The notes under the pieces are model-generated. The model was not told the origin of the DNA. It did not search any database and worked only from the letters and a program-made list of their open reading frames with translations. Made by a program: the position numbers and the translations under genes. From an uncultured Acidobacteriota bacterium (GTDB lineage Bacteria > Acidobacteriota > Thermoanaerobaculia > UBA5066 > Gp7-AA6), in NCBI GenBank assembly GCA_963764715.1, contig CAVXTP010000022.1, forward strand, positions 320,001 to 384,000: DNA of 64,000 nt. Direction: 5' to 3'. Each line of letters starts with the position of its first letter. Positions within the stretch are counted from its first letter, which is position 1. Shown here piece by piece: positions 7,859-32,104 of this stretch.

Positions 7859-9733
7859 TCAGTCGAGCGTCAGGATGAGGAGGGTGCGGTCGTCGTCGGC
7901 CGGCCGGTCCCCGGTGTGGGCGCGGAGCGCCGCGAGCAGGGCGTCGCGCATCGCCGCGGCTCCGTCGGCGGCGTGCCGGGCGAGCAGCGCTTCGAGCCGT
8001 TCGAAGCCGAAGGCTTCGTCGTCTCCGTCCACGGCCTCGACGAAGCCGTCGGTGAGGAATACGACGAGGTCGCCGGCGCTGAACGGGTACTCCTGCGTCG
8101 GGAACGTTCGGTCGGGAAATAGGCCGAGGGGCAGCCCCGGGAGCGAAAGCGATGCGACGCGCCCGTTCGATATCCGGTAGGGAGCCAGCTGCCCGGCGTT
8201 CGTCAGTCGGCCGCGTCGGGTCGCAGGATCGTAGGCGAGCAGGGCCAGGGTCATGAAATGCCGGGGGTCCGTCGAGCGGTGGATGAGCTCGTTCATCCGG
8301 CCGAAGAGCTCGCCGTCCCGATGCCCGGCTTCGAGCAGCGTCGACAGGCCGGCTTTCGCCATGGCCACCAGGAGTCCGGTGGGGAGGCCGTGCCCCGAAA
8401 CGTCGCCGAGGGCGATCGCGGTGCGGCCGTCGCCCATCGGGAGATAGTCGTAATAGTCCCCGCCGATCTCGGCGACCGGCTCGAAATGCGCGAGGACCTG
8501 GAATCCCGGCAGCGCGGCCTCAGGGGGAGGCAGGAGATTGTGCTGGATCGTCCGCGCGATGGCGATCTCGCTCTGGAGTCGCTCCTTCTCGGCGGTCTCC
8601 ACGAGCAGCTTCTGGATCGATTCCGCCATCCCGTCGAACGAGCGGGCCAGGTCGCCGATCTGGTCCCGGGACTTCGACTGGATCCGAATGGAGAAGTCGC
8701 CGCGGGCGATCGCGCCGGCGGCGCGGGTGAGGCGGTTGACGTTCCGCACGAGCGAGCCGACGAGCACGAAGGCGATCGCCAGGGCGGCGAGGTAAACGAC
8801 GAGGAGGATCCCCGAGACCGACACGAACGCGATCCGGAAGGCGCGGTGGATTTCGGCGACGCCCTGCGAGAAGAGCTGCGAGAAGAGCAGGCGGGGCGAG
8901 GTCTTCGCCGTCAGGATCGCGACGTCGTAACGGGGTCCCTCCGGGGCGTCGAGCACCGTCTCGAGGTAGAAGGCGTGGATCCACTCGCGATTCCAGAGGC
9001 CCTCGCCGGGCGGAGGGGCTGCCTGGGGCCGGCGGTCCGCGATTTCCTGGACCCGGGACTCCTTCGGCGGCGGCGTCCTGGTCCGGACCTCGAATCCCTG
9101 GTTGTCCTCGGAGGCCTGCTCCGCCTCGGCGCCGACCTCGTACCCGGTCCGGTCGGCCAGCTCCTGGAGCCACGGAGCGGCCGGATCGGACAGCTCGAGG
9201 AGCCGCGCCTCTCCCCGGCGGTCCGACGGCACCGCGAGCCACAACCGGTCGCCGGACACGAGGAACCCGGGCCGGGCGAGGGCTTCGACCCACGGCGCCG
9301 GATCGCCCTTCTTGAGCCAGGGCACTCCCGAGGCGGTCACGTGGCCCGACGGGGCGCTCACCGCCGGAAGGTCGGCGCGCCGCGCCGCGGCGGCCTCGCC
9401 GACGGCGGTGATCTCGCGCCGCAGCCGGTTCGCCATGTACTGGTGGGCGACGATGTACGAGGCCAGCGAGAGGAGGACCGCGACGAGCGGGATCGGCACG
9501 ACGCCGATGAGAAAGTAGGAGAAGGCCAGCCGCAGCGCCGTCCGGCGCACGACCACGCGGAAGAGGGCGACCGCGCCCCGCCCGAGCAGCACGAGGCACG
9601 CCACGCCGGCGGCGACCGTGAGGAGGGCCGGCGCGCACCCGGCATCGGGGCTCACGCGATGCAGAATCGCCGCGCCGGCCGCGGAGACGGCGAAGACGCC
9701 GAGCCAGACGCGCGTCGATTTCTTGAGGGACAC
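7859..9733 (-). CDS. Membrane PP2C/SpoIIE (RsbU-like) phosphatase with HAMP domain
   Basis: TM helices; HAMP (RLTRAAGAIARGDFS..DQIGDLARSFDGMA); IGGDYYD, GDVSGHG, FLTDGFVEA, DDDRTLL. Confidence 0.9.
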   Translation of the reverse strand: MSLKKSTRVWLGVFAVSAAGAAILHRVSPDAGCAPALLTVAAGVACLVLLGRGAVALFRVVVRRTALRLAFSYFLIGVVPIPLVAVLLSLASYIVAHQYMANRLRREITAVGEAAAARRADLPAVSAPSGHVTASGVPWLKKGDPAPWVEALARPGFLVSGDRLWLAVPSDRRGEARLLELSDPAAPWLQELADRTGYEVGAEAEQASEDNQGFEVRTRTPPPKESRVQEIADRRPQAAPPPGEGLWNREWIHAFYLETVLDAPEGPRYDVAILTAKTSPRLLFSQLFSQGVAEIHRAFRIAFVSVSGILLVVYLAALAIAFVLVGSLVRNVNRLTRAAGAIARGDFSIRIQSKSRDQIGDLARSFDGMAESIQKLLVETAEKERLQSEIAIARTIQHNLLPPPEAALPGFQVLAHFEPVAEIGGDYYDYLPMGDGRTAIALGDVSGHGLPTGLLVAMAKAGLSTLLEAGHRDGELFGRMNELIHRSTDPRHFMTLALLAYDPATRRGRLTNAGQLAPYRISNGRVASLSLPGLPLGLFPDRTFPTQEYPFSAGDLVVFLTDGFVEAVDGDDEAFGFERLEALLARHAADGAAAMRDALLAALRAHTGDRPADDDRTLLILTLD

Positions 9734-10299: not shown

Positions 10300-11831
10300 G
10301 CTCCCCGCGGTCCATCGTCATCCTCGACTTCGGCGGCCAGTACACGCAGCTGATCGCCCGGCGTGTTCGCGACGCCCGCGTCTTCTCGGTCGTCCTGCCG
10401 CCGGGCGCCTCGGCCGAGGAGATCCGGCGCTGGAACCCCGCGGGCATCATCCTGTCGGGCGGGCCGCAGAGCGTGTACGAGCCCGACGCGCCGAGGCCCT
10501 CGGGCGACCCGACGAGCCTCGGCGTTCCGGTCCTGGGCCTCTGCTACGGCATGCAGTGGCTGGCGCAGGCGGCGGGGGGAGAGGTCGCCAACGAGGGCCG
10601 CGAGTACGGGCGCGCCGTGGCGCGGCTGGCGGTCGATTCGGATCTCTTCGCCGGCCTCGAGCCCGAGCAGACCGTGTGGATGAACCACGGGGACTCGGTC
10701 GTCGCTCCGCCGTCGGGATTCCGCGTCATCGCGTCGACGCCGACGACGCCGCTCGCGGGCTTCGAGAACCCGGCGCGGCGCGTCTGGGCCATCCAGTTCC
10801 ATCCCGAGGTCCGGCACACGGTCCACGGGACCGAGGTCCTCGAGAACTTCCTCTTCCGGATCTGCAAGGTCGAGCCGAGCTGGACCATGGAGGGCTTCCG
10901 CCACGAGAAGGTGGAGGCGATCCGCCGCCAGGCGCCGACGGGAGCGGTCATCTGCGCCCTCTCGGGGGGAGTCGATTCGTCGGTGACGGCGATCCTGCTC
11001 CGCGAGGCGCTCGGGGACCGCGTCCACCCGATCCTCGTCGACCACGGCCTGATGCGCGCCCACGAGCGCCGGCAGGTCGTCGAGGCGTTCGCGCGCCTCG
11101 GGATCCGCGTGCACGCGGTCGATGCCGGGGACCTCTTCCTGTCGCGCCTTTCCGGCGTGACCGATCCCGAGGAGAAGCGCAAGATCATCGGACGGACCTT
11201 CATCGACGTCTTCGAGAAGGAAGCGAAGTCGATCCCCGACGCCCGATACCTGGCGCAGGGCACGCTCTATCCCGACGTCATCGAGTCGGTGTCGATCAAG
11301 GGGCCGTCGGCCGTCATCAAGACCCATCACAACGTCGGCGGTCTTCCCGAGCGGCTCGGCTTCGAGCTGATCGAGCCCGTCCGCGAGCTCTTCAAGGACG
11401 AGGTCCGACTGCTCGGCGCGGAGCTCGGGCTGCCGCGGGAGTTCCTCGCGCGCCATCCTTTCCCGGGGCCGGGCCTGGCGGTGCGGATACCGGGCGAGGT
11501 CACGCGCGAGAAGGTCGCGATCCTTCAGAAGGCGGACGAGATCGTCCTCGACGAGATCCGGCGAGCCGGCCTCTACGACGCGATCTCGCAGGCCTTCGCC
11601 GTTCTCCTGCCGGTCAAGTCCGTGGGCGTGATGGGCGACGGCCGGACCCACGAGTTCGTTCTGGCGGTGCGCGCCGTCCAGACGAGCGACTTCATGACGG
11701 CCGACTGGTTCCGGATGCCCCACGAAGTGCTCGACGCGATCGCGAGCCGGGTCGTGTCGAGCGTGCGCGGCATCAACCGCGTCGTCTACGACATCACGTC
11801 GAAGCCCCCGGCCACGATCGAGTGGGAGTAG
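10296..11831 (+). CDS. guaA: GMP synthase (glutamine-hydrolysing)
   Basis: ILDFGGQYTQLIARR, GLCYGMQ, QFHPEV, SGGVDS, IKTHHNVGG, KPPATIEWE. Confidence 0.98.
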   Translation: MSSPRSIVILDFGGQYTQLIARRVRDARVFSVVLPPGASAEEIRRWNPAGIILSGGPQSVYEPDAPRPSGDPTSLGVPVLGLCYGMQWLAQAAGGEVANEGREYGRAVARLAVDSDLFAGLEPEQTVWMNHGDSVVAPPSGFRVIASTPTTPLAGFENPARRVWAIQFHPEVRHTVHGTEVLENFLFRICKVEPSWTMEGFRHEKVEAIRRQAPTGAVICALSGGVDSSVTAILLREALGDRVHPILVDHGLMRAHERRQVVEAFARLGIRVHAVDAGDLFLSRLSGVTDPEEKRKIIGRTFIDVFEKEAKSIPDARYLAQGTLYPDVIESVSIKGPSAVIKTHHNVGGLPERLGFELIEPVRELFKDEVRLLGAELGLPREFLARHPFPGPGLAVRIPGEVTREKVAILQKADEIVLDEIRRAGLYDAISQAFAVLLPVKSVGVMGDGRTHEFVLAVRAVQTSDFMTADWFRMPHEVLDAIASRVVSSVRGINRVVYDITSKPPATIEWE

Positions 11832-22268: not shown

Positions 22269-24809
<2,541 letters not shown>

Positions 24810-24858
24810 CCCGCCGGCCTCCGCGTTCCCCCGCCGCCCGGGCGGGGGCGCCGCCGCC

Positions 24859-25704
24859 CTAGAACGTCAGGCGCGCGCCGATCCCGTCGTGGATCGGCAG
24901 GATCTCGATCTCCGTGCGGGTGCCCTCGTCCGCGCGGTGGCGACCGACGATGAAGCGCCCCACGGCGACGCCGATCGCGGCGCCGGCGAACACGTCCCCC
25001 ACGAAGTGCGCCTGGTCGTTGACCCGGTCGAAGGCGACGAGCGTCGCCAGCGTGTAGGCGACCGTCGGCACGATCCAGCCGTCGGTGCGCATGGCGATGA
25101 CGGAGGCGACCGCGAAGGCGACCGTCGCGTGCCCGGACGGGAAGGACTTGTACTCGTTCGTGAAGCCGTGAAAGATCGTCTGGCCGTCCGACTGCTCCGG
25201 CCGTTCCCGGCCGAAGGCCGGCTTCAGGACCGAGGTGAAGAGGCTCGCGAACGCGGCGGCCTCGAGGGCGTCGCGGCCCGTGTCGCGCATCTCCGGGTTG
25301 TGCGCGAGGAGTCCGCCCGCGACGAGCCCCCCGGAGATGGCCCAGGCGTAGCCGGCCCCGAAGCCGGTCGTGGCGTCCGAGATCGCGTCGGTCGTCGCGG
25401 AGCGACGGAGCTGGATGGCCTGGTAGGTCTGCTCGTCGGTCGCGATGAGGACGCCGAGCGCGGCGGCGAAGGCGGCGAAGCGCTCGAAGTCGGTGGTTCC
25501 CCAGTGCAGGGGGCTCGTGACCAGGGCCCCGCCGTCGGAGACGTACCGCTTCGCCTCGTCGAGGAGCGCCTTCCCGACGACCTCGGGGACGCCGGGGTCC
25601 GGCGAGCCTTCGGCCGCCGGGTCGTCGGCCGGGGCGGCGAGGGCCGCCGGCGACAGTCCGAGGAGGACCGCGAGGGCCGCGGCGAGAGCCCGGGAGCCCG
25701 TCAT
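24859..25704 (-). CDS. PAP2 family phosphatase with signal peptide
   Basis: KPAFGRERP, SFPSGHA, RVNDQAHFVGDV. Confidence 0.88.
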   Translation of the reverse strand: MTGSRALAAALAVLLGLSPAALAAPADDPAAEGSPDPGVPEVVGKALLDEAKRYVSDGGALVTSPLHWGTTDFERFAAFAAALGVLIATDEQTYQAIQLRRSATTDAISDATTGFGAGYAWAISGGLVAGGLLAHNPEMRDTGRDALEAAAFASLFTSVLKPAFGRERPEQSDGQTIFHGFTNEYKSFPSGHATVAFAVASVIAMRTDGWIVPTVAYTLATLVAFDRVNDQAHFVGDVFAGAAIGVAVGRFIVGRHRADEGTRTEIEILPIHDGIGARLTF

Positions 25705-27994
25705 GTCCGCACGCGCGCCAGGAAGTACGTCGCGGCGAGCCCGAAGATCACGTTGGGCGACCAGGCGGCGAGCGGCGGCGGCAGCGCGCCGACCTCGCCG
25801 AGCTTCGTGACGAAAGCGGACGCCACGAGCGTCAGGATCCCGAGGCCGAGCCCCAGCCCCACGCCCGCGAGCGCGCCCCGCCGGCCGACGCGGAAGGCGA
25901 ACGGCACCGCGAGGAGCACCATGACCGGAAGGAGCGCCGGCTGTGCGAGCTTCGCCTGGAGCGCGGTCTCGAGGCCCGAGGTCGGATAGCCGCCGGCCCG
26001 CAGGTGGCGGGTCAGCCGCTCGAGCTCGCGAAAGCGCATCTCCTCGGGCCGCCGGCGCGTGGCGACGATCGAAGCGGGGGGGTCGCCGGCGACGCGGTCC
26101 TCCGCGAAACGGCGGTACGGCGCGCCGCTGCCGCCTTCGAAGGAGCGGGTCCAGCCATCCTTCAGCGTCCACTGGCCGCCGCTCCAGATCGCCTCCCGGG
26201 CGTCGGTGCGGCTGGCCAGAGAGAAATCCGGGGCGAGTCGGAAGATCGCGACGCCGAGAAGGGCGTTGCGCGCGGAGACGCTCTCCTCGCGGAACCAGAT
26301 GCTCCCGTCCCGCGCGAGGTACCAGTTGCGCTCCGCCGCGGTCCGGATGCCGTAGTCCGGCGGGCGCCCGTAGATGACGTTTCGGAAGCGGGCCTGGCGC
26401 TGCTCGGCGAGCGGCAGGACGTACTCGCCGACGGCGAAGGCCAGCACGGCGAAGAGGCCGGCGGCGGCGAGGACCGGGAGGGCGAGCCGGAAGAGCGAAA
26501 CCCCCGAGGCGCGGAAGGCCGTGTCCTCGGCGTTCTTGGAGAGCACCCCGAGCCCGACGAGGGTCGCGAGCAGCACGGCGAACGGCGCGATCTGCACGGC
26601 GATCGAGAGGATGAAGTAGCGATAGTAACCGACGACGACCGCGGCCGGGGGATGGTGGCGCGCGACCTCGTCGAGCTTGTCGGCGTAGTCGACGACCACG
26701 GCGAGCAGGAGCGCCGAAGCGAACACGAGGCCGAGCGCCGAAAGGAAGCGGGCCAGCACGTAGCGATCGACGAGGGAGAGGAGCCCGAATCCGAACCGGG
26801 GGCCGGACGCCGCGGAGGCCCGGAACGCGCGCACGACGGTTCCCGCCCGGGGGGCTCGGCGATCGGCGGCCGCGGAGCGTGCGGCGCGCGGCCGGCCGGC
26901 TTCCAGAGCGCCGCGGCGACGCCGAGCGCGACGAGCAGGATGTTCGGCAGCCACATCGCGAGGGCCGGGGCGACCCGGCCTTCCTGCGCCCAGGTCTCGC
27001 CGCTCGAGAGCAGAAGGTAGTAGCCGAGCAGGATCGCGAGCGACAGGGCGAAGCTGCCGCCCCGGCCCCCGCGGCGCAGCGCCTGGGCCAGCGGAACGCC
27101 GACGAGGGCGAAGGCGAGGCACGCGACCGGGATGGCGAACTTCTTGTGGATCTCGACCCAGGCGAGGCGGCGGGTCTCGGGCGACGAAGGCATCTGGTGC
27201 GCGGCCTGCCAGAGCTCCGGGAGCGTCTGGGACCGGAGGCCCCGCTGGACGCGGACGGTCGCCCCGGGGGGCGGCGAGGATTCGCCGGCGAGGAGGAGCC
27301 GCTGCGTCTCGTTGCGGCTCGTCCGGTCGCGCGACGGGTCGGCTGAGTCGAGCTCGTGGACCGTGGACTGGAAGAGGTCGAGCCACAGCCGGTCGCCTTC
27401 GAGCGTCAGGCTGCCGCGCCGGGCGACGATGATCCGGTTGGGAGGCTCGGACTCGTCGCCGAGGCGGAGGAACACTCCCTCGAAGGACCGGCCGTCCGGG
27501 GCCGCGCGGTCGAAGAAGAAGGTGATGCCCGGCCGCGGCTCCCGGAACGTCCGGGGCGCGACGAGGTTGACGATGGAGGTCGTGGCGACGCGGACCATGG
27601 ACGCCTGGAGGGCCTCGTTGGCGGGAGGCAGCACCACGTTGTAGAGGACGAGCACCAGGACCGAGGCGGCCGCCGCGGCGCCGAGGACCGGGCGGTACAG
27701 GGCACCCGGTCCCACGCCACAGGAGCGCAGGGCGATGAGCTCCGAGTCCGTGTTGAGCCGGCCGAGGCCGACGAGGACCCCGAGGAGGAAGGCCATCGGT
27801 AGGGTCAGAACGACGATCCACGGCAGGGACAGGACGACGAGCCGCGCGACCTCGGTGAAGGGGGCGCTCCGGCGCACGGCGAAGTCCGCCAGCATGAAGA
27901 TCGTCCGGATGAGCAGGATGAACGTGTAGGCCGCGAACCCCAGGAGGAAGGGCGGCCAGATCTCGCGGAGGACCGACCGGGAGATGAGGCGCAT
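25701..27994 (-). CDS. lptF: Fused LptF-LptG LPS export permease, with a 1-nt frameshift at 26849-26854
   Basis: LptF half (RLISRSVLREIWPPF, GRLNTDSELIALRSCG, EIHKKFAIP) and LptG half (LVDRYV, EDTAFRASGVS, PPLAAWSPN) are in different frames; adding one C to the C6 run joins them. Confidence 0.85.
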
Positions 27995-28059
27995 TCGGGT
28001 CGATAGTGCAGAGCGCGGAGGGGGTTTGTAAAGGACCGATCAGATCAGGCGAATATCGT

Positions 28060-28087
28060 ATTTTACATAATATATCTTATCGGACGC
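28060..28087 (-). other. dif-like XerC/XerD recombination site
   Basis: Minus strand GCGTCCGATAA-GATATA-TTATGTAAAAT vs E. coli dif GGTGCGCATAA-TGTATA-TTATGTTAAAT; 11-6-11 layout, XerD arm 10/11; AT-rich island in GC-rich DNA. Confidence 0.88.
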
Positions 28088-28541
28088 TGTGGGTCACGCG
28101 CTGGCTCTGCCGGATGAGCGTCGCGAGCATCGTGGCCACGACCGTTCCCTCGCTCGATCCGGTCCCGGGCGCCGCCAGGACGTCGGCCGCCGCCACGGTC
28201 AGGGTCCGCCCCGCGCGCAACACCCGGCCGCGGGCGACGAACCGCTCCCCGTCGGCCGGCCGGAGAAGGTTCAGCTTGAACTCGACCGAGAGCACCTCGC
28301 TGTCGGCGGGCATGAGCGTGTACGCCGCGTATCCGCACGCGCTGTCGGCGATCGCCGTCAGGACTCCGGCGTGGAGGTAGCCGTGCTGCTGCGTCAGGTC
28401 GGGCCGATGCCGCAGCGCGATGTCGACCTCGCCCGGCTCGACGCGCTCGAGCGAGGCGCCGAGGAGGCGCATGAGGGCCTGGGCGTCGAAGCTCTTCCGC
28501 ACGCGTGCGGCGAACTCGGGGTCGGAGGCCGCGAAGGTCAC
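28077..28541 (-). CDS. PaaI family thioesterase
   Basis: QQHGYLHAGVLTAIADSACGYAA, VEFKLNLLRPA, VLRAGRTLTV. Confidence 0.92.
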   Translation of the reverse strand: MTFAASDPEFAARVRKSFDAQALMRLLGASLERVEPGEVDIALRHRPDLTQQHGYLHAGVLTAIADSACGYAAYTLMPADSEVLSVEFKLNLLRPADGERFVARGRVLRAGRTLTVAAADVLAAPGTGSSEGTVVATMLATLIRQSQRVTHSVR

Positions 28542-28572
28542 GATCGGCCGGCGCTCTCGTCGTCGCGAGCCG

Positions 28573-29418
28573 CTACTTCTTCGTCAGCTCCAGCTCCCCG
28601 GACTCGAGCTGCTTCAGGACCCCGCGGAGAGCGTCGATGAGCTCGGCCTTCGCGACCCGGGACTTGTGGAACGAGATGTTCAACCGGAAGGGTCCGTCCT
28701 TGGGCGAGTAGACGAAGTGGAAGGCGCGCCGCTTGTCGGCGTCCCCGTCCTTCCCCTTCTTCTGCTCGCGCAGGTCGTCGCGCGTCGAGCCGGCGATCAC
28801 GGCGGCAATCGCCGCTTCCATCTTCCGGCGGTCGCCGAGTCGCGCGATCTCGAGGAGCACCGAGCGCGCGTCGATGTCGGCGCGCCGACATTTCTCTCGG
28901 AGGTCCTCCGGGATGTCGAGCAGCGACATCGCCTCCGTGATCGAGACGCGCGAGCGGCCGACGGCCGTCGCGACCTGCTGCTGGGTGTGGCCGTGCGTCT
29001 CGGCGAGCGCCGCGAAGCCCGCGGCCTCCTCGAACGGATGGAGGTCGCGACGGTGGAGGTTCTCGATCAGCGCGATCTCGAGGACCTCGTTGTCGGGGAC
29101 GTCGAGCTCGATGCACGGGACCTCGGCGAGCCCGGCTTCGAGGGCCGCGCGGAAGCGCCGCTCCCCCGCGATGATCCGGAACCGTCCGTCCGGCAGCGGC
29201 CGGACGAGGATGGGCTCGAGGACGCCCTTCGACTGGATCGACTTCTTGAGCTCGTCGAGGTCGCCCACGCTCCGGCGCGGCTGCTCCGGGTTCGTCTCGA
29301 TCTCCTCGATGGGCACCAGGCGCCCGATCGACGGGCCGAAGCGCTCGGAGAGCGAGTCGACGAAGTGGGCGTCGTGCTTCATGTGCGATTCCGCTGGCAG
29401 GCCGCGGCGTTTAGACAC
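28573..29418 (-). CDS. parB: ParB/Spo0J family protein (atypical paralogue)
   Basis: NPEQPRR, SIQSKGVLEPILVR, IIAGERRFRAA, ALIENLHRRDL, HTH; GTG overlaps the parA 3' end. Confidence 0.9.
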   Translation of the reverse strand: MSKRRGLPAESHMKHDAHFVDSLSERFGPSIGRLVPIEEIETNPEQPRRSVGDLDELKKSIQSKGVLEPILVRPLPDGRFRIIAGERRFRAALEAGLAEVPCIELDVPDNEVLEIALIENLHRRDLHPFEEAAGFAALAETHGHTQQQVATAVGRSRVSITEAMSLLDIPEDLREKCRRADIDARSVLLEIARLGDRRKMEAAIAAVIAGSTRDDLREQKKGKDGDADKRRAFHFVYSPKDGPFRLNISFHKSRVAKAELIDALRGVLKQLESGELELTKK

Positions 29419-30166
29419 GGGAAAGGACCTCCTCGGAAAGGGAGTAATACTCCGCGGCGCCCGACGAGCGCGGCGCGAAGGTGAAGATCGACTCCTGGTG
29501 CGCGGGGCTCTCCTCCAGGCGCACGCTCTTGGAGATCGTCGTCTTGAAGATCTTCTTGCCGAAGACCCCGGCGATCTGCTTGTAGACGTCCTTGCCGAGC
29601 ACCGTCCGCTTGTCGTGGAGCGTGATGACGACACCCAGGATCTGGAGGTTGGGATTGGGCCGGGCCTTGATCTTGTCGATCGTCTCGAGCAGGTCGTCGG
29701 TGCCCTCGAGGGCGAAATAGGACGACTGGATCGGGATCAGGATGTGGCTCGAGGCGACCATCGCGTTGACCGTGATCATCCCGAGGGTCGGAGGCGTGTC
29801 GATCAGGATGGCATCGTAGGAGCGCCGGACCGCGTCGATCTTGTCCCGGAGCCGGAAGTGGCCGTCGATCTCCCCCAGCAGCTTCGACTCGAGCTTGGCG
29901 AGCGAGATCCGCGCCGGGGCGATGTCGAGGTTCTTCATTCCCGAGGGCCGGATGATGTCCTTGAGCTTGACTTCCGGGTCCGTCATGACGTCGAACATCG
30001 ACTTGTCGACCGTGCGCCGGTCGAGGTACGACATCGTGCTGTTGCCCTGCGGGTCGAGGTCGATCAGGAGGGTCTTCATGCCCTTCTGGGCCATGGCGGC
30101 CGCGAGATTGATCGCCGTGGTGGTCTTCCCGACTCCGCCCTTTTGATTGGTAATCGAGATGATCAC
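29411..30166 (-). CDS. parA: ParA/Soj family ATPase
   Basis: NQKGGVGKTTT, IDLDPQGN, IDTPPTLG, SVRLEESP. Confidence 0.95.
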   Translation of the reverse strand: MIISITNQKGGVGKTTTAINLAAAMAQKGMKTLLIDLDPQGNSTMSYLDRRTVDKSMFDVMTDPEVKLKDIIRPSGMKNLDIAPARISLAKLESKLLGEIDGHFRLRDKIDAVRRSYDAILIDTPPTLGMITVNAMVASSHILIPIQSSYFALEGTDDLLETIDKIKARPNPNLQILGVVITLHDKRTVLGKDVYKQIAGVFGKKIFKTTISKSVRLEESPAHQESIFTFAPRSSGAAEYYSLSEEVLSRV

Positions 30167-30251
30167 GCACCGGAGTATAGCTGTCGGAGATCCGCTGTCG
30201 ACTCTCCGCTTCCTCCGGCCGGGAGCGGACGGACGAGAGCCGGCGGCTCCC

Positions 30252-30731
30252 CTACATCCGGTACTTGCCGAGCTCGTCCGGGCTCGCTTCTTCGAGCCAC
30301 TTGCGGAGGCGGTCGGGGTCCTGGTCGGAGTCGGAGCGCAGGCTGCGGCTCTTCTCGAGGACGTCTTCCTCGACGAAGATCTCGGCCTGCGAGCGCAGGG
30401 CGAGCGCGATGGCGTCGCTCGGCCGGCTGTCGACCGAGAGCGAGGCGCCTCCGCGATTCAGGTGGATGCGGGCGAAGAAGGTGTTCTCGCGCAGGTCGTT
30501 GATCACGATCCGCTCGACCCGGGCGTCGAGCTCGGCGAGGAGGTTCTTGAGGAGGTCGTGGGTCATCGGGCGCGGGGTCGAGACCTTCTCCATCTCGAGG
30601 GCGATGGCGTTGGCCTCGAAGATCCCGACCCAGATCGGGAGGAAGTGGCCCTTTTCCAGGTCCCGCAGGATGACGACCGGCATGTTCGAGACCGGGTCCA
30701 TCAGGAGGCCCTTGATTTCCATCTTGATCAT
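30252..30731 (-). CDS. Bifunctional nuclease family protein (DUF151)
   Basis: [34 protein letters not shown]. Confidence 0.9.
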
Positions 30732-30741
30732 GATCGGCACC

Positions 30742-32104
30742 CTACGCCGCGAGGCGTCCCGCCAGTGAGTTGGGCAATCCCCGCGTGATCCGGACCCTGG
30801 ACGTAACGGCCCGGGGCGAGGGCGTCGGCCTCGGGTCCCGGCTCGAGGTGGACGATTCGGTTGCAGGGCGTGCGCCCCGTCGTCTGGCCGTGGCTGGTTG
30901 CGGCCCTCGACCAGGATCTCGAACTCCCGGCCGACGAGCCGCTCGTTTTCTTCCCGCTGGATCCCGGCCTGGAGGTCGAGGAGCGCCTGGAGGCGGCGGG
31001 CCGAGGTCTCCCCCGGCACCTCGATCTCGCTCCCCCACCGCGCCGAGGCCGTACCCGGCCGCGGCGAGTAGCGGAAGCCGAAGAGTCTCGAGAAGCGCAG
31101 GTCCCGAACGAGCGCGAGGGTGTCCTCGAAGTCGGCGTCGGTCTCGCCCGGGAAACCGACGATGAAGTCGGAGGTGACGGCGATGCCGGGCACCCGGCCG
31201 CCGGATGCGCCCGACGAGCTCGCGGTATTCGGACGAGGTGTACCGCCGCTTCATGCGCGAGAGCACGCGGTCCGACCCGGACTGGGCCGGCAGGTGCAGG
31301 TACGGAGCCAGCGTCTCCACCTCGTCGAGCGCCGCGAGGAGGTCCTCGTCGACCAGCCGCGGGTGCGAGGTGATGAAGCGAAGGCGCCGCAGGCCCTCGA
31401 CCCGCCCGGCGCGCCGCAGAAGCTCGCCCAGGCCGAAGCCCTCCCGCGGCTCGCGGTAGGCGTTGACGGTCTGGCCGAGCAGCGTGACCTCGGTGTAGCC
31501 GCGGACCGCGAGATGCCGGACCTCCTCGACGATCTCGGCGGCCGACCGGCTGCGCTCCCGCCCCCGGGTGAACGGGACGATGCAGAAGGTGCAGTACTGG
31601 TCGCAGCCCTCGATGACCGTGACGTACGCCTGGAAGGCCGAGCCGCGGCTGATCTGGCGGAACTGGTAGACGGGGTCCTCTTCGGGAAGGTCGAGCTCGA
31701 GGGCCTGGCGCCGCTCGGCCCGCGCGGCGGCCGACGAGCTCGCCGACTCTCTCGACCTGGCCGGTCCCGGCCACGAAGTCGACCCAGGGGGCGCGCTCCA
31801 GGATCTCGGGCCCGGAGACCTGGGCGACGCAACCCGTCACGCCGACGACGAGCTCCGGGTCCTCCTGCTTGCGGCGCGCGAGGACGCCGAGCGCGCTGAA
31901 GACCTTGTCCTGGGCCTTCTCCCGAACCGCGCAGGTGTTCAGGATGACGACCTTCGCCTCGGCCTCGGCGCCCGCCGCGCGGGCGATGCCGAGCGCCTCG
32001 AGCTGCCCTGCCATGCGCTCGCCGTCGAGCACGTTCATCTGGCAGCCCCAGGTCTCGACCCGGTAGGTTTCGCGCGGCGCCCGCACGGGCAGGGTCGGCG
32101 TCAT
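30742..32104 (-). CDS. miaB: tRNA methylthiotransferase MiaB, interrupted by four single-base frameshifts
   Basis: [51 protein letters not shown] and a TRAM domain, spread over successive frames. Confidence 0.9.

Follow-up and report, generated by a model that had tools for sequence, protein, structure and literature searches.

Why should a bacterial chromosome carry a partition locus beside dif, the site that marks its terminus? Chromosomal ParABS systems are textbook machines for segregating replication origins, and how termini are positioned and separated outside a few model groups is an open question. The locus considered here lies in a 64,000-nucleotide stretch of DNA (C22:320001-384000, hereafter the window) on contig C22 of an uncultured Acidobacteriota bacterium, whose genome assembly comprises 4.36 Mb in 26 contigs at ~70% G+C. 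In this window a parA-parB pair, whose products we call ParA-ter and ParB-ter (ter for terminus), stands next to a 28-bp dif-like site. An earlier reading of the DNA alone (the original prediction) took the pair for a second, paralogous Par system that may position the terminus region or couple it to division. We find that the pair is indeed an old paralog of the origin-type pair, that the 28-mer is the chromosomal dif, and that the linkage between them is conserved across the Acidobacteriota. The reading that we favor, with a probability of roughly 55%, is that the locus constitutes a complete, orthogonal second ParABS system dedicated to the terminus.

A second Par pair at dif

Gene calls and domain assignments agree with the initial description of an intact parA-parB pair that is followed by a PaaI gene ending on the dif-like site; the distance from the parB stop to this site, which had been put at about 0.5 kb, is 486 bp. 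The AT-rich 28-mer has the 11-6-11 layout of a dif site, in which the assignment of one arm to XerC and the other to XerD is our presumption, and it occurs only once in the genome, the runner-up differing at 10 of 28 positions. Scored with a weight matrix, it reaches 55.2 as against 11.2 for the second-best site of the genome. The genome also encodes an FtsK with a gamma domain, a XerD that scores above its family cut-off, and a XerC-like recombinase. The xerD gene is found at C22:311485-312345, just left of the window and 36 kb from dif, and the XerC-like gene is on contig C17.

The orientation of the surrounding DNA leads to the same site. Strand-polar words were learned on the other contigs, oriented by GC skew, and C22 was kept out of the learning. 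The strongest of these words, GGGGGAG, has 466 leading and 120 lagging copies on those contigs (n = 586, 80% leading); AGGGGAG is strongly strand-polar too. On C22, one switch of polarity, placed between 343954 and 349161 (23954-29161 of the window), accounts for 182 of the 190 copies of GGGGGAG. This interval brackets dif (C22 348060), which is the convergence expected of FtsK-orienting words at dif. In addition, a change of GC skew from plus to minus is seen on C22 alone. Given its layout, its single copy, the convergence of polar words upon it, and the XerC-like, XerD, and FtsK gamma proteins encoded in the same genome, the 28-mer is a genuine chromosomal dif and marks the terminus. GGGGGAG and the conserved dif block could serve as ready markers for termini in acidobacterial metagenome assemblies.

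The locus is also remote from the origin. No neighbor typical of oriC had been noticed beside it, and dnaA is in fact located at the end of contig C17. In five complete relatives, which represent five families, ter-parB is 0.48-0.53 of a genome away from dnaA in every case (5/5), and the ter locus thus lacks the origin proximity of chromosomal ParABS loci.

The genome possesses a canonical pair as well. A Soj/Spo0J-type parA-parB opens contig C7 (1-2200) and is followed by a bactofilin gene and then the atp operon. The C7 ParB has the N-terminus GLGRGL, and between the two genes there is an origin-type variant parS, a perfect 14-bp palindrome within TGTTCCACGTGGAACG, of which the assembly holds one perfect copy. 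The sign of GC skew is opposite on C7 and C17. Canonical parS, of which the original prediction had spotted no copy at the locus, has no match within 3 mismatches on C22; the C7 site is what comes nearest to it in the whole genome. The terminus and origin-type proteins are 40% identical for ParA and 44% identical, over the core, for ParB. Our trees contain 24 of 89 terminus loci, selected to be widely spread, together with 9 loci of origin type and, from other phyla, 52 loci for ParB or 48 for ParA. The terminus-type proteins form a clade of their own in the ParB tree, with a Shimodaira-Hasegawa-like approximate likelihood ratio test (SH-aLRT) value of 95, and are monophyletic in the ParA tree (SH-aLRT 99), whereas the acidobacterial origin-type proteins group among the canonical proteins of other phyla. 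In both trees, the sister of the terminus clade is one metagenome-assembled genome (MAG) labeled Deltaproteobacteria. ParA-ter and ParB-ter are therefore an old paralogous pair that is distinct from the origin-type Soj/Spo0J pair, as had been supposed from the window alone.

Full-length ParB-ter orthologs are present in all 41 relatives first searched. By our count, the class sample has a full-length ortholog in 291 of its 301 genomes; in a phylum-wide sample, at E <= 1e-38, the figure is 175 of 301 genomes, representing 133 of 191 genera. Among the best 80 matches in species-representative genomes, the full-length ones belong to Acidobacteriota, to one MAG classified no further than "bacterium," and to the MAG labeled Deltaproteobacteria (L134), whose match spans residues 35-271; represented among the full-length matches are Thermoanaerobaculia, Vicinamibacterales, Blastocatellia, Acidiferrales, and Aminicenantes.

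The gene keeps its place beside dif over much of this range. Within the order, dif is <=1.5 kb from parB in 30 of 30 loci. A degenerate dif pattern matches 255 of the 301 class genomes, nearly always once (the reversed control yields 4 matches in total), and parB lies within 3.4 kb in 19 of 20 dif-centered regions from other families of the class. When class genomes were cross-referenced by hand, 47 of 54 had dif between 29 bp and 6.7 kb 3' of parB on the same contig, and in the remaining 7 the two were on separate contigs. Because the weight matrix was trained on loci of the class only, loci from other classes provide an independent set, and here a strong dif is found 24 bp-6.3 kb 3' of parB in 27 of 40 loci; for named public loci the figure is 16 of 28. 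The site is always 3' of parB, and its own orientation relative to parB varies by lineage. These counts include the unpublished genomes G030 (among the 30 order loci), G158, G198, and G202 (among the 47), and G044 and G450 (only in tallies), and no conclusion hangs on any of them. The linkage of parB to dif, which had been conjectured from a single window, is conserved across Acidobacteriota.

The candidate centromere, the two proteins, and their neighbors

The candidate for the site that ParB-ter recognizes is a perfect 16-bp palindrome, TGTCGGCGCGCCGACA, which was found through k-mers common to 63 diverged loci, the other shared k-mers being coding motifs and dif. It escaped the earlier inspection, which saw no parS, because it is a different palindrome and is hidden in the parB reading frame. 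Repeated perfect 16-bp palindromes were discarded as a lead, since only GC-rich low-complexity ones recur in the genome.

In this genome the palindrome has one perfect copy, 788 bp from dif. The pattern TGTCGGC-NN-GCCGACA is found in 272 of the 301 class genomes, mostly once in each, as compared with 6 of 301 for a reversed control of the same composition. Its occurrence follows that of the protein: in the phylum sample, 130 genomes have both ParB-ter and the site, 45 have ParB-ter without the site, 1 has the site without ParB-ter, and 125 have neither. Among 89 loci, which were chosen around parB or dif and so are not an unbiased sample, the palindrome is inside parB in 51, 5' of parA in 20, and 3' of parB in 6, with several copies in some loci, and its median distance from dif is 813 bp in the 65 loci that have both. 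In family f65 there are two to four palindromes over tens of kilobases around parAB. One locus (L042, G299:C15, ~10313-10663 of the locus) has seven copies, counting those with <=2 mismatches, 5' of parA-ter, six of them in a 350-bp array; genomes of this type are ~10 Mb in size, and the lineage has up to 8 sites per genome.

We compared 25 parB genes of the order, 5 of the 30 having been left out beforehand as truncated or frameshifted. The palindrome is the most conserved 16-nt window of the gene, with a mean identity of 0.995 as against 0.71 for third codon positions overall, and the Cys within it is encoded by TGT in all 25 genes, although the same genes use TGC for every other Cys (24/24). 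This invariance, together with the use of an otherwise avoided codon, indicates that the DNA itself is under constraint. With its single copy, its co-occurrence with ParB-ter, and its mobility within the locus, the palindrome is a candidate parS-ter, the predicted binding site of ParB-ter. Thus, in place of the origin-type parS, the locus appears to have a private candidate site beside its parB. The three conditions under which the original prediction was to be given up were checked by computation, and none of them led to its refutation.

ParB-ter is a recognizable member of the ParB/Spo0J family. It matches ParB_N (PF02195) with 97.9 bits (3.5e-28), TIGR00180 with 147.1 bits (cut-off 58.45), and the helix-turn-helix (HTH) domain PF17762 with 49.6 bits. 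The QPR, GERR, and ENxxR boxes of the cytidine triphosphate (CTP) clamp (Q46, R48, G85-E86-R87-R88, E119, N120, and R123) do not vary among the 20 orthologs aligned. The closest solved relatives are Thermus Spo0J (1vz0, 2e-37), the ParBs of Caulobacter and Myxococcus, and Noc, and an AlphaFold2 model with a mean predicted local distance difference test (pLDDT) score of 87.5 aligns to solved ParB and Noc structures. The recognition helix, on the other hand, carries Glu in 24 of 24 ter-ParBs where 60 of 60 canonical ParBs have Asn, and the canonical G-x-A-R becomes S-x-L-L, changes that fit an altered DNA specificity.

The N-terminus of ParB-ter consists of a KRRGLP peptide and a conserved HxHFV motif. 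Three lineages have loci with intact flanks from which parA is missing, namely four loci of genus g34 (L033-L036), L073, and L084. In all 6 the KRRGLP/HxHFV region is lost and the HxHFV motif gone, and parB is still beside dif; the H-[FYL]-V core is kept in every locus that has parA. That loss of the motif tracks loss of parA points to the N-terminus of ParB-ter as the contact for ParA. As for ParA-ter, its orthologs retain KGGVGKT (78/79), DxDPQ (78/79), and a VRLEESP-like stretch (75/79). In Soj, the Arg of the VRLxExP stretch binds nonspecific DNA. The Walker A, A', and B motifs and the VRLxExP stretch of ParA/Soj proteins are all present in ParA-ter, as are the nucleotide-binding boxes and HTH of ParB/Spo0J proteins in ParB-ter, and judged by these motifs both proteins look active.

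The pair belongs to a wider block, miaB-BFN-parA-parB-dif-lptF (BFN for bifunctional nuclease domain), that is transcribed in one direction and is found phylum-wide (Table 1). Among 60 loci of other families and classes, homologs were detected for BFN in 51, miaB in 49, parA in 53, and, across dif, the lptF-like gene in 40. In the same 51 the BFN gene directly precedes parA, or parB if parA is absent, and the BFN protein (PF02577) may be part of the Par-ter system. The thioesterase gene is a lineage-specific insert between parB and dif, as no homolog of it was found beside parB in the 60 loci; dif covers its stop and last three codons. The parB start is a GTG that overlaps the parA stop by 8 nt. 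In tblastn, the miaB pieces fall in frames -1, -2, -3, and -1 and the gene is intact in relatives, so that the broken miaB is either a pseudogene or the product of assembly indel errors; the BFN gene, parA, and parB are intact, unlike miaB. The region contains 3 promoter-like sites, where shuffles lead one to expect 0.1. Over the -35 and spacer of the site preceding parA there are two CGACAGC direct repeats 14 nt apart (30174-30215, minus strand), and this pair could be an operator. A search for RNA sequencing runs that match positions 28000-30300 listed none with half or more of their sequence words, a result that bears on neither expression nor habitat.

Table 1. Features at and around the ter locus, in window positions
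Feature	Position	Strand	Basis or remark
lptF-like permease gene, conserved neighbor across dif	26900-27994 (end approximate)	-	Open reading frame; starts 66 bp past dif
dif site, two 11-bp arms and a 6-bp spacer	28060-28087	.	Plus strand ATTTTACATAATATATCTTATCGGACGC
PaaI-like hotdog thioesterase	28077-28541	-	TIGR00369 58 bits (cut-off 36.6); PF03061
parB (ParB-ter), CTP-binding-type ParB paralog, 281 aa	28573-29418	-	ParB_N, HTH_ParB, TIGR00180
Candidate centromere parS-ter, perfect 16-bp palindrome TGTCGGCGCGCCGACA	28875-28890	.	Inside parB, codons C-R-R-A-D-I
parA (ParA-ter), small Soj-like deviant Walker A ATPase, 251 aa	29411-30166	-	Pfam AAA_31 (PF13614) 3.7e-59, 200 bits
Promoter-like site just 5' of parA (TCGACA, 16 nt, TATACT)	30174-30201	-	Consensus match only, 10/12
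BFN-domain protein, conserved neighbor 5' of parA	30252-30740	-	PF02577 5.7e-42
miaB, split over three frames in this assembly	30845-32071	-	tblastn with intact MiaB of a relative

A model for ParAB-ter and its alternatives

How might such a system work? We propose that ParB-ter would load at the palindrome as a CTP-dependent clamp and spread from there over the dif region, thereby building a centromere-like complex on the terminus. ParA-ter, presumably a nucleoid-bound Walker ATPase stimulated by the N-terminal peptide of ParB-ter, would then position this complex just as cargo is positioned by the ParABS systems of plasmids and origins. A single terminus would be kept in the middle of the nucleoid, close to the plane of division, the place at which dif is acted upon by FtsK and XerCD, and after replication and resolution the sister termini would be driven apart. 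The steps that lead from the site to binding, and from the complex to its positioning, we infer from the established behavior of the ParABS family. The fuller claim, that Acidobacteriota chromosomes have two centromeres, the usual one at the origin and another at the terminus, and that the latter, with a ParA and a CTP-type ParB of its own, carries dif to the division plane and separates the sister termini, is a tentative one, to which we give somewhat less than even odds. If true, it would mean a new mechanism by which the completion of replication is linked to the resolution of dimers and to division, instead of MatP- or ZapT-like systems.

Several observations weigh against the proposal of a terminus-dedicated ParABS system. 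The exact palindrome pattern is lacking from 45 of the 175 ParB-ter genomes, although one-mismatch variants are found at the expected places in some loci without it, and a Fisher test of the association between ParB-ter and the site is overstated because relatives are not independent. A strong dif near parB is absent from 13 of the 40 other-class loci and from four Acidiferrales loci. The cumulative GC-skew maximum of C22 is at ~430-440 kb, which puts it ~85 kb rightward of dif, and GC skew is positive throughout the window; replication may usually end elsewhere than at dif, or a recent rearrangement may have blurred the skew. In family f5 (e.g., G117:C1:611057-637576) and one f13 genome, parB and dif share a contig with the single palindrome but are 23-68 kb removed from it, and coating of dif by ParB can therefore not be universal. 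The parA-less lineages that keep parB at dif suggest that the core role may be that of ParB alone. Finally, the adjacency of parB and dif may be inherited synteny rather than a selected arrangement. Taken with sites that lie tens of kilobases from dif, the parA-less lineages show that the core role of the system may be for ParB to mark the terminus region, not to coat dif itself.

The parA-less lineages also lie behind the first alternative, in which ParB-ter and its palindrome form an organizer or landmark of the terminus, and segregation by ParA is secondary or dispensable. Such an organizer might anchor the terminus to the divisome, load or unload an SMC-type (structural maintenance of chromosomes) condensin, or modulate FtsK and XerCD at dif, and would work like MatP, ZapT, or XerD at its terminus sites. 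Loss of parA with retention of parB at dif in three lineages (4/4 g34 loci, L073, and L084) speaks for this alternative, as do the persistence of the palindrome in 22 of 33 g34 genomes, with one-mismatch copies ~5.5 kb from parB across dif, and the invariance of the CTP-clamp motifs. Against it stand the presence of ParA-ter in 53 of 60 loci, its intact catalytic motifs, its better conservation across the phylum (54-70% identity as compared with 41-49% for ParB), and the retention of the N-terminal motif of ParB wherever parA is retained. We consider this alternative unlikely.

A second alternative is historical. An early acidobacterium could have acquired a plasmid or Xer-integrated element at dif, of which the pair would be a domesticated relic. 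In that case its adjacency to dif would be an accident kept since terminus rearrangements are disfavored, and whatever it does today might have nothing to do with the terminus. In most loci, a mere 14 bp to a few hundred base pairs separate dif from the 3' end of parB, the position in which Xer-integrating elements sit, and both proteins fall in deep clades apart from the origin-type pair, with the Deltaproteobacteria-labeled MAG as sister. G+C content at 28-30 kb of the window, at 0.674, is also lower than the ~0.70-0.73 of the surroundings. Furthermore, the genome G346, which has no ParB-ter, has dif ~280 bp past miaB-BFN and no parAB in between (L187, G346:C3, ~8474-8780 of the locus), although neither of the two other ParB-ter-less genomes among the three examined has a recognizable dif near BFN. 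The G346 arrangement implies that the place of dif in the block is old and that parAB was either inserted there or lost from there, and the synteny of parB and dif possibly dates from a Xer-mediated integration. However, no second dif is found in the genome and no other mobile-element gene in the block, and two host-type polar words within parB and parA point to dif as their replichore predicts. The spread of the pair to 133 of the 191 genera sampled in the phylum (175 of 301 genomes) speaks for vertical inheritance, and a single palindrome has been kept near dif even where it has moved by tens of kilobases. We regard this alternative as distinctly improbable. The adjacency itself probably does record history as well, parAB having come to stand at the dif edge of an old terminus block.

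The idea that ParB-ter is a KorB-like regulator, whose operator controls parAB and neighbors such as lptFG, could draw on the loci with the palindrome 5' of parA (20/89, with up to seven copies of <=2 mismatches in L042) and on weak KorB matches (PF08535, 19.4 bits; 8qa8, 2e-12), but a palindrome that is inside the parB frame in 51 of 89 loci and 23-68 kb off in f5 is not in the position of an operator, the PF08535 match is under the Pfam cut-off of 22.3 bits, and the nearest solved relatives are chromosomal ParBs, so that we give this idea hardly any credence.

Relation to known partition and terminus systems

To our knowledge, no natural chromosomal ParABS system devoted to the terminus has been described. 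Full-text literature searches, judged from titles and abstracts, likewise returned no description of a terminus-encoded ParABS system. A genome-wide survey of dif sites predicts dif in three Acidobacteria and makes no mention of parB (Kono et al. 2011; PMC3025954). The terminus-dedicated system that we propose would matter in two further respects. With its three defined parts, one of them a predicted 16-bp site, it opens the handling of termini to direct tests in a whole phylum that is abundant in soil, and it would add a ParB/parS pair that is orthogonal to the canonical pair and could be used to tag DNA loci.

Among the known systems nearest to it is origin ParABS (Thermus thermophilus, 1vz0; Caulobacter crescentus, 6t1f; Myxococcus xanthus, 7bnk). 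Origin ParABS shares with the ter system the ParB boxes and HTH, a KGGVGKT ParA, the order parA-parB with translational overlap, and a 16-bp palindrome of the form TGT...ACA that is often inside or beside parB. The ter system differs in that it lies at dif, about half a genome from dnaA, and that its ParA and ParB form separate clades. The core of its palindrome is different, and its recognition helix has Glu at the position of the invariant Asn. The N-terminus of its ParB reads KRRGLP...HxHFV rather than GLGRGL, its C-terminal domain is its own, and there is usually one site per genome.

The original prediction likened the locus to Noc of Firmicutes, with which it has in common a chromosomal ParB paralog that has changed its DNA specificity and kept the CTP-binding fold. 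Noc is not known to work with a dedicated ParA. Its gene stands next to the origin parAB, and its many binding sites avoid the terminus. The analogy does not hold up as an identity: ParB-ter scores 140.8 bits (4.7e-41) against TIGR04285, of which the cut-off is 315, and the ter system has a dedicated ParA and one site per genome. Secondary-chromosome and plasmid ParABS systems (RepAB, SopAB, and the chromosome-specific pairs of Vibrio and Burkholderia) resemble the ter system as second systems with a private site in the same cell. Those systems sit near the origin of their replicon. They serve a separate replicon, whereas the ter system is located on the main chromosome at the terminus. Membership in the plasmid partition families was rejected, since every plasmid-type NCBIfam model stays under its cut-off, among them RepB (64 against a cut-off of 201), RepA (103 against 348), SopA (66 against 725), and PrgP. 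With integrative mobile elements exploiting Xer (IMEX) and plasmid Xer sites, the ter locus shares a par locus that adjoins a Xer site. Identity with an IMEX was rejected, as there is a single dif in the genome, no flanking repeat, and no element genes, the neighbors being miaB, BFN, and lptF.

MatP-matS of enterobacteria and ZapT of Caulobacter bear a possible likeness to the ter system in their working, namely a sequence-specific mark on the terminus and a tie to division. Profile and structure searches found no relation of ParB-ter to MatP or ZapT in sequence or fold. The MatP and ZapT systems have many sites and are not known to use an ATPase, whereas the ter system usually has one site and, in addition, a ParA. 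Set beside all of these, the arrangement of ParA-ter and ParB-ter at dif suggests a way of handling the chromosome terminus that has not been described before.

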